From NCBI RefSeq assembly GCF_003334335.1, contig NZ_QOWQ01000135.1: a stretch of 953 bases of DNA; one strand, given 5' to 3'. This DNA comes from Escherichia coli. GTDB lineage: Bacteria > Pseudomonadota > Gammaproteobacteria > Enterobacterales > Enterobacteriaceae. The notes below the pieces were generated by a model that made no database searches, was not told where the DNA came from, and saw only the letters and a list, made by a program, of their open reading frames with translations. Each line of letters starts with the position of its first letter. Within the stretch, counting starts at the first letter, position 1. The translations under genes and the position numbers were made by a program. This document shows positions 2-953 of the stretch, piece by piece.

Positions 2-34
2 CGTCGCCGTCGTCCGCTGGGAGTGAGGTTATGA
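2..34 (+). CDS. W: 3' end of upstream gene (5'-partial), probable gpW-like head-tail joining / head completion protein; last 10 codons only
   Basis: Reading from base 2 gives RRRRPLGVRL followed by TGA at 32-34. This arginine-rich tail resembles the C-terminus of lambda gpW as I recall it (...QRRRGPAGFYV), and W-then-B is the lambda gene order. Only 10 codons are visible and the comparison is from memory, so the call rests mostly on synteny. Confidence 0.45.
   Translation, partial: RRRRPLGVRL
19..28 (+). promoter_or_regulatory. Ribosome-binding site (Shine-Dalgarno) for the portal gene
   Basis: Purine-rich GGGAGTGAGG at 19-28; the GGAG core at 20-23 sits 7 nt upstream of the ATG at 31. It lies inside the 3' end of the upstream gene, consistent with coupled translation. 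Confidence 0.5.
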
Positions 35-953
35 AACGAACGCCTGTCCTGATTGATGTGAACGGCGTTCCGCTTCGGGAGAGCCTCAGCTACACCGGTG
101 GCGGTGCAGGATTTGGCGGGCAAATGGCAGAGTGGTTGCCACCCTCGCAGAGTGCCGATGCGGCCCTGCTGCCCGCGTTGCGTCTGGGGAATGCCCGTGC
201 AGATGATCTGGTGCGCAATAACGGAATAGCGGCCAATGCGGTGGCCCTGCATAAGGATCACATTGTCGGGCATATGTTTCTGATTAGCTACCGTCCGAAC
301 TGGCGCTGGCTGGGGATGCGGGAGACCGCGGCAAAAAGTTTTGTCGATGAGGTGGAGGCGGCCTGGTCAGAATACGCAGAAGGGATGTTTGGTGAGATCG
401 ACGTGGAAGGGAAACGCACGTTTACGGAATTTATCCGTGAAGGTGTGGGCGTTCATGCGTTTAACGGCGAAATCTTTGTGCAGCCGGTCTGGGATACGGA
501 GAGCACGCAACTGTTTCGTACGCGTTTTAAAGCCGTGAGTCCGAAACGGGTGGACACGCCAGGACACGGTATGGGGAACCGTTTTCTGCGGGCCGGTGTG
601 GAGGTCGATCGATATGGCCGTGCCGTCGCGTACCATATTTGTGAGGATGATTTTCCGTTCTCTGGTAGTGGACGATGGGAACGGATCCCGCGTGAACTTC
701 CCACCGGACGTCCGGCCATGCTGCATATTTTCGAGCCGGTGGAGGACGGGCAGACCCGTGGGGCTAATCAGTTTTACAGCGTCATGGAACGGCTGAAGAT
801 GCTCGATTCCCTGCAGGCAACACAGCTTCAGTCGGCCATAGTGAAGGCGATGTATGCAGCGACGATTGAAAGTGAACTTGATACCGAAAAGGCCTTTGAA
901 TATATCGCCGGTGCGCCGCAGGGGCAGAAGGATAATCCGCTTATTAATATTCT
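31..953 (+). CDS. B: Portal protein, lambda gpB family (3'-partial; N-terminal ~307 aa, gene continues past the window)
   Basis: ATG at 31 opens a frame with no stop through base 953 (307 full codons). Translation begins MKRTPVLIDVNGVPLRESLSYTGGGAGFGGQMAEWLPPSQSADAALLPALRLGNARADDLVRNNG... and includes ...FEPVEDGQTRGANQFYSVMERLKMLDSLQATQLQSAIVKAMYAATIESELDT.... These match lambda gpB as I remember it (MKTPTIPTLLGPDGMTSLREYAGYHGGGSGFGGQ...; ...FEPVEDGQTRGANVFYSVMEQMKMLDTLQNTQLQSAIVKAMYAATIESELDT...). The upstream gene stops at 32-34 in another frame, and an SD precedes the ATG. The identification is by recall, not a database search. Confidence 0.94.
   Translation, partial: MKRTPVLIDVNGVPLRESLSYTGGGAGFGGQMAEWLPPSQSADAALLPALRLGNARADDLVRNNGIAANAVALHKDHIVGHMFLISYRPNWRWLGMRETAAKSFVDEVEAAWSEYAEGMFGEIDVEGKRTFTEFIREGVGVHAFNGEIFVQPVWDTESTQLFRTRFKAVSPKRVDTPGHGMGNRFLRAGVEVDRYGRAVAYHICEDDFPFSGSGRWERIPRELPTGRPAMLHIFEPVEDGQTRGANQFYSVMERLKMLDSLQATQLQSAIVKAMYAATIESELDTEKAFEYIAGAPQGQKDNPLINI

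Follow-up and report, generated by a model that had tools for sequence, protein, structure and literature searches.

The N-terminal leader of a phage-21-type portal protein from an Escherichia coli prophage: variable tip, conserved motif and glycine-rich segment

The portal protein of phage lambda, gpB, is converted to gpB* by the loss of an N-terminal leader. The figure of about 20 residues, from which the original prediction started, is acceptable, with sources giving 20-22: the lambda RefSeq record annotates B codons 1-22 as a leader peptide and a mat_peptide from 2902, with the mature protein starting at G23, and in PMC3224144 the number is 22 in a table (“22 aa removed”) and 21 in the text (“a 21 amino acid peptide”). 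The protease that modifies gpB is gpC (PMC12617516). The cryo-EM model of the virion (PMC10721106) is without the first 23 residues, its wing domain beginning at residue 24, and the effect of leader removal on the interaction properties of the portal is described as not known (PMC3224144).

Lambda and phage 21 have a common gene order (terminase, W, portal, S49 protease/scaffold, D, E). In phage 21 the order is annotated as terminase small and large subunits, gpW homologue, portal, protease/scaffold, scaffold, decoration protein and major capsid protein. The phage 21 portal, the product of gene 4, is the orthologue of gpB and 60% identical to it over the full length; processing is documented for lambda alone. 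Outside these families, the portal gpQ of phage P2 has its N-terminus trimmed by the gpO protease during maturation. Like gpB, gpQ thereby loses a short N-terminal peptide to a prohead protease, but the portal and protease families differ.

The portal gene and its surroundings

The window, by which we mean the whole 953-nt stretch of DNA that was analysed, carries the 5' part of a lambda-family portal gene from an E. coli prophage that resembles phage 21 (Table 1). The open reading frame begins at the ATG at 31 (start MKRTPVLIDVNGVPLRESLSYTGGGAGFGGQ; codons 1-21, MKRTPVLIDVNGVPLRESLSY) and continues beyond the end of the window. Its product scores 396 bits against TIGR01539 (portal_lambda, an equivalog model with a cut-off of 172.7) over residues 26-302, and matches PF05136 (Phage_portal_2) over residues 29-295 with E=5.2e-69. 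Lambda gpB and gpB* belong to the same PF05136/TIGR01539 family, and lambda portal chains (8k38 and others) match the window protein with E=4.7e-117, based on sequence. At the DNA level, the window is 96.6-97.9% identical to 19 phage-21-type coliphages, and the matched features are the gpW-like adaptor and the portal. The 3' end of the gpW-type adaptor gene comes directly before the portal, and the S49 protease gene lies beyond the window, in the order seen in phage 21.

The window portal is an allelic variant of phage 21 gene 4 (M81255, OL657228), to which it has 96.8% nucleotide identity. Four of the 307 residues differ (T22N, S39A, S158T and G298E), and leader residues 1-21 are identical. 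The closest of the fetched IMG/VR loci, L003 (IMGVR_UViG_2602041671_000001), is 28-29 nt and one residue (T22H) off the window. It is listed at 100% protein identity despite T22H, and an exact copy of the window is present in none of the fetched loci. Near-identical alleles vary at portal position 22 (T/N/H/S/I).

The gpW-like gene terminates at a TGA (32-34) that overlaps with the ATG of the portal gene, the two together reading ATGA. The gpW homologue of phage 21 is annotated as ending 4 nt past the portal start, and lambda W and B have an overlap of like kind (RefSeq lambda record). The occurrence of the ATGA stop/start overlap in the window, lambda and phage 21 suggests translational coupling. 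Other readings of this DNA were set aside. A downstream start (e.g., the GTG at 58-60) was rejected because the ATG, the GGAG and the ATGA overlap are conserved and codons 7-19 have substitutions of the coding type; small open reading frames on the opposite strand and in other frames were dismissed since they lie inside a strongly conserved coding frame; and an RNA element was rejected, as an Rfam search of the window gave no family match up to E=1.

Table 1. Features of the 953-nt window
Feature	Position (nt)	Strand	Description
gpW-like head-tail adaptor gene, 3' end	2..34	+	Frame 2, ends in RRRRPLGVRL-stop; read off the sequence
Shine-Dalgarno GGAG	20..23	+	7 nt upstream of the portal ATG; equals the annotated ribosome_binding_site 2813-2816 of phage 21
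Portal protein gene (lambda gpB/phage 21 gene 4 family)	31..953	+	First 307 codons, cut by the window end
Variable leader tip, codons 2-6 (KRTPV)	34..48	+	Sequence and length both vary; high ω, low identity
Leader motif ΦΦDxxGxPΦ followed by R-E, codons 7-17 (LIDVNGVPLRE)	49..81	+	Clade conservation, codon counts, distant portals
Predicted cleavage site, codons 19-20 (L/S junction)	85..90	+	Homologous to lambda A22/G23
Glycine-rich motif, codons 21-31 (YTGGGAGFGGQ)	91..123	+	Predicted N-terminal arm of the mature wing domain

Conservation and constraint along the leader

Judged from the alignment, the window leader is homologous to residues 1-22 of lambda gpB. Both proteins have a leader of about 20 residues that ends in L-R-E, followed by Y-x-GGG-x-GFGGQ, and the N-terminal peptide and the glycine motif lie exactly where the original prediction had placed them. 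The aligned matches within the leader and at its border are P5=P7, L7=L9, G12=G14, L15-R16-E17=L18-R19-E20 and Y21=Y24, and the glycine motif is conserved with lambda, as had been noticed (GGGAGFGGQ vs GGGSGFGGQ, plus the Y before the motif). The leaders themselves are of different types (VLIDVNG-VPLRESLSY in the window vs TLLGPDGMTSLREYAGY in lambda), that of the window lacking one residue in the core and two in the tip relative to lambda. The earlier claim that the first ~20 residues differ from those of lambda is correct to the extent that only 8 of the first 20 alignment columns are identical (3 are gap columns), vs 60% overall, but the difference is neither uniform nor exceptional. In the phage 21/lambda alignment, 96 of 515 20-column segments (19%) match the N-terminus in divergence or exceed it, and the identities are clearly fewer, down to 2 in 20, in columns 167-206, 285-313 and 497-515. 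In window coordinates, residues 167-206 are 529-648 and residues 285-313 are 883-951 and beyond, and in both stretches phage 21 and lambda are further apart than at the N-terminus.

Conservation was followed in a clade alignment of 84 full-length proteins, all except two with an identity to the query of no less than 60%. Information content averages 2.63 bits over residues 1-19 and 3.08 over the whole protein, which puts residues 1-19 at the 15th percentile of 19-residue segments, and this deficit sits in residues 2-6. Conservation in the clade is 0.92 for L7, 1.00 for G12, 0.88 for P14, 0.95 for L15 and 0.96 for R16, and these five rank with the most conserved positions. Residues Y21, G23, G25, G27, F28, G29, G30 and Q31 are 93-100% conserved, and the glycine motif is in the top 15% of 8-residue segments by information content. 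The flanks of the site homologous to the lambda cleavage site are kept in character (LRE-x-[A/L/M], then [G/S]-Y), with position 19 being A/L/M and position 20 G/S/A across the clade; for lambda, the leader removed is 20, 21 or 22 residues long, depending on the source.

The N-termini of the clade are of two types. The 21-type has the form x-x-L-[IV]-D-[VI]-x-G-x-P-L-R-[EQ]-S-[LM]-[GS]-Y, and the lambda-type, which is one residue longer, L-L-[GA]-P-D-G-x-T-[PS]-L-R-[EQ]-Y-A-[GSA]-Y. Within the 21-type, mean pairwise identity is 0.65 for residues 7-19 and 0.69 for the body (residues 32-530); within the lambda-type it is 0.77 and 0.68, and between the types 0.37 and 0.60, respectively. For residues 2-6, pairwise identity is only 0.11-0.26 in every comparison, within or between types. 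The nearest neighbour by protein body shares the N-terminal type in 83 of the 84 sequences.

Several individual entries deserve mention. One 21-type sub-group from IMG/VR (e.g., VNGELVDLHG...) has an apparent GTG start and a tip of just 3-4 residues (M-N-G-E-L-V-D...), and another 21-type sub-group is without most of the glycine run (MKNVQILDHKGQPMxESYKGAAHGFGGQ). NCBI and UniRef attach the name “plasmid partitioning protein ParB” to P0232 from Cedecea neteri, a full-length lambda-family portal (PF05136) with 67% identity to the query; the name is probably a misannotation. Five entries (P0154, P0223, P0261, P0005 and P0006) either combine the portal with domains foreign to it (PF06316/PF13505, PF06805) or reach a length of 770-970 residues, and are probably artefacts of gene calling or assembly in prophage regions.

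Constraint was measured in 229 unique portal genes from IMG/VR loci, with synonymous and non-synonymous changes counted per codon by parsimony on a distance tree. IMG/VR scans with the window protein and lambda gpB gave just loci of 98-100% identity, and the diverged queries P0170, P0183 and P0198 were added for the rates. The rates are crude (UPGMA tree, saturation uncorrected, recombination ignored), and ω is to be read as an index, not an estimate. For all sequences (21-type alone in brackets), ω is 0.74 (0.52) for codons 2-6, 0.21 (0.21) for codons 7-19, 0.127 (0.135) for codons 20-31 and 0.127 (0.125) for the body (codons 32-530). The contrast between codons 2-6 and 7-19 is large despite the crude method: residues 7-19 are under purifying selection, and residues 2-6 are nearly unconstrained. 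The ω of codons 7-19 is slightly above that of the body, at weak significance (Fisher p=0.015-0.034), but 16% of the 13-codon segments of the body have an ω as high, and codons 285-313 (ω 0.31) and 497-530 (ω 0.275) are more relaxed. By codon, the non-synonymous/synonymous counts are 0/15 for G12, 1/14 for P14, 1/20 for L15 and 3/29 for R16, and close relatives of lambda have 0 non-synonymous vs 28 synonymous changes in codons 7-19. The abundance of synonymous change argues against constraint at the mRNA level as the source of leader conservation. The relaxed constraint that the original prediction had invoked for the leader is thus found in residues 2-6 (ω ~0.5-0.7) but not in residues 7-19, where ω is 0.21 and G12, P14, L15 and R16 are near-invariant. 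Within each type residues 7-19 are as conserved as the rest of the protein, or more so, which for these residues is the alignment outcome that the original prediction had named as refuting it; residues 2-6 are not.

The tip has some peculiarities of its own. Among loci L321-L400, which are of the lambda-type and have 99-100% protein identity, parsimony gives 14 non-synonymous vs 1 synonymous change in codons 2-6, and the tip variants found in close lambda relatives are MKTPTIP, MKTSTIP, MKMSTIP and MKTPTTP. This excess could represent recurrent or diversifying change, or the counts could be inflated by recombination. Synonymous change per site is lower at codons 2-6 (10.4) than elsewhere (15-16).

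The leader motif in the wider portal family

An exhaustive HMMER search gave 2,701 relatives, from which a family alignment was made of 89 full-length representatives of 50%-identity clusters together with the phage 21 and lambda portals (91 sequences). In this alignment the region ahead of the W-x-P...S-A-D core is of very variable length, and in the distant family the place of GGGxGFGGQ is taken by [YF]-x-[GA]-[AGS] and residues unrelated to it. The family-wide information content of the glycine motif is 1.60, below the protein mean of 1.80 (91 sequences). GGGxGFGGQ is conserved just in the lambda/21 clade and not throughout the family, which agrees with the TIGR01539 and PF05136 models starting at residues 26 and 29.

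The leader motif has a wider distribution. The strict pattern [LIVMF][LIVMFY][DN]xxGxP[LIVMFA] occurs within the first 45 residues of 19 of the 85 distant representatives, which are 29-44% identical to the query; the number expected by shuffling is 0.05 (maximum 2). Across all 42,620 residues of the 85 distant portals, the pattern has no further occurrence. In the distant portals, the motif starts at residues 1-19 (i.e., there are 0-18 residues before it), and its glycine is 21-36 residues ahead of the conserved Trp, with a mode of 23, the same as in the window. About three quarters of the distant family members are without the motif. One motif-bearing and one motif-lacking distant portal are both located in terminase-gpW-portal-S49-gpD-gpE modules. 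Since the motif-lacking portal is also beside an S49 protease, the motif would not be a general requirement of S49 proteases, nor would it track the type of protease, on one case of each kind.

The window fits the strict pattern (LIDVNGVPL), and lambda does not (LLGPDGMTSL). Because the 21-type leader fits the ancient family motif and that of lambda does not, the 21-type appears ancestral and the lambda-type derived. The divergence between the lambda and 21 leaders therefore looks like a discrete change on the lambda-type lineage rather than drift in the window homologue. In the original prediction the window homologue was the diverged party; this framing is reversed here, as it is the lambda form that looks derived.

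Predicted processing and possible role of the leader

In the alignment, lambda A22-G23 corresponds to window L19-S20, and lambda E20-Y21, which is the bond on the “20 residue” count, to window E17-S18. The protease was examined in the phage 21 orthologue, as the window ends before the protease gene. Directly downstream of the portal, phage 21 gp5 has an SppA/S49 domain (E=1e-31) and is 54% identical to lambda gpC, with Cys-Ser-Ala kept at the position of lambda Ser166. In gpC, this serine is what we take to be the catalytic residue (attributed to Medina et al. 2010). The homology of the leaders, the conserved flanks of the site and the S49 protease encoded downstream together make processing of the window portal as in lambda a plausible and reasonable inference, with the bond predicted at either L19-S20 or E17-S18. 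The phage 21 records (M81255, OL657228) have no leader, mat_peptide or processing annotated.

For a structural view, an AF2 monomer was computed of the full-length protein, consisting of window residues 1-307 and the remainder from locus L003 (pTM 0.82, mean pLDDT 86.6). The pLDDT is 74 for residues 1-10, 70 for residues 11-20, 60 for residues 21-30 and 80 for residues 31-40, and the lowest N-terminal confidence (~60) is in the glycine motif, which is coil throughout. Within the leader, residues 8 and 14 form isolated strand bridges in the model, and residues 15-18 a short helix. By its per-residue confidence and secondary structure, the model would fit a semi-ordered leader joined to the wing domain via a flexible glycine-rich arm.

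The account that we favour, and regard as probable, is that residues 1 to ~19 are the counterpart of the lambda leader and are removed by gp5 at or near L19-S20, with a near-neutral tip, a segment (residues 7-17) that is functional before cleavage, and Y-x-GGG-x-GFGGQ serving as a flexible arm. As part of this account, the leader would consist of the variable tip (2-6), the conserved element (7-17) and a small-residue junction, [L/M/A]-[G/S]-Y. By analogy with the conversion of gpB to gpB*, the S49 (gpC-type) protease encoded downstream would cut at or near L19-S20 in prohead maturation, and S-Y-T-GGGAGFGGQ would then form a flexible arm at the N-terminus of the wing domain. Before its removal, the leader may guide preconnector/prohead assembly or may present the cleavage site to the protease/scaffold; we propose that it is conserved because it acts before it is removed. 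The two fixed versions of the leader would then be a 21-type that keeps the ancestral motif and a derived lambda-type with one additional residue (LLGPDGxT[P/S]LREYAGY). A more tentative extension is that the leader functions as a tethered and conserved module for docking or assembly (ΦΦDxxGxPΦ with a variable tip, ~23 residues before the Trp) that is present in about one fifth of distant portals and acts before cleavage, e.g., by recruiting the protease/scaffold or by keeping the portal competent for assembly; its two exclusive versions may set partner specificity.

The evidence bears differently on other readings of the same leader. For residues 2-6, the data fit a passively discarded propeptide that has drifted neutrally from lambda under relaxed constraint (ω 0.52-0.74, identity 0.11-0.26, variable length), and when this reading is extended to the whole ~20-residue leader it can still call on residues 1-19 as a block being in the lowest 15% of clade segments for conservation, and on codons 2-19 together having an ω of 0.32 vs 0.127 for the body. 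As an explanation of the whole leader, however, it is very improbable: codons 7-19 are under purifying selection (ω 0.21; 0 vs 28 in the lambda-type), G12, P14, L15 and R16 hardly vary, the within-type identity of residues 7-19 about equals or exceeds that of the body (0.65 vs 0.69; 0.77 vs 0.68), and the motif persists in relatives that are 29-44% identical. For residues 7-19 the drift reading is largely refuted. Purifying selection on these residues would also be expected if the 21-type portal were left uncleaved and its N-terminus were a permanent structural element, such as a hairpin on the wing or on a neighbouring subunit. Further points in keeping with such an element are the AF2 confidence, which is moderate rather than that of a disordered segment, with strand bridges at 8 and 14 and a helix at 15-18, the distant motif-bearing portals, which are without a conserved cleavage context between motif and core, and the two phage 21 records, neither of which annotates processing. 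We nevertheless consider an uncleaved N-terminus unlikely, because LRE-x-[L/M/A]-[G/S]-Y-x-GGG is common to lambda, where the cut is documented, a protease of the same family with a catalytic Ser is encoded next door, and the equally conserved segment of lambda is missing from the virion model (PMC10721106).

A somewhat unlikely reading, which concerns the difference between the types rather than the fate of the leader, is that lambda and phage 21 diverge at residues 7-20 because this segment is a specificity determinant that has co-evolved with a partner, whether the protease/scaffold (gpC/Nu3 vs gp5/gp6), a chaperone requirement, gpW or terminase. The two leader forms are indeed sharply distinct and internally conserved, 83 of the 84 nearest neighbours are of the same type, and between types residues 7-19 are far less alike than the body (identity 0.37 vs 0.60). 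Yeo and Feiss reportedly found in 1995 that the lambda and phage 21 terminases tell their own proheads apart via the portal, but a leader that is removed before packaging could not be the terminase determinant. Moreover, the head genes are all linked, which makes co-variation inseparable from shared ancestry, and a more divergent stretch is present at residues 285-313, in the clip region. In the lambda structure, residues 280-342 form the clip domain, of which 303-319 are disordered (PMC10721106). This clip-region stretch is a more plausible site than the N-terminus for lambda/21 partner specificity (terminase, gpW).

Much of this is familiar ground. GenBank has contained the phage 21 gene 4 sequence for a long time (M81255), and the processing of the lambda portal is textbook knowledge. 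The finding is for the most part ordinary, its practical value is modest, and the understanding of portal biology is unchanged by it. What is mildly new is the family-wide ΦΦDxxGxPΦ leader motif and the existence of two fixed leader types, of which no description was found in a search that covered literature other than older subscription titles. Annotation pipelines leave the leader unmodelled, the family HMMs beginning at residues 26-29. For the 21-type portals, the mature N-terminus is predicted to be near S20, or at S18 if lambda loses 20 residues, and the G12, P14, L15 and R16 motif would be a cheap mutational target for the role of the leader before cleavage.
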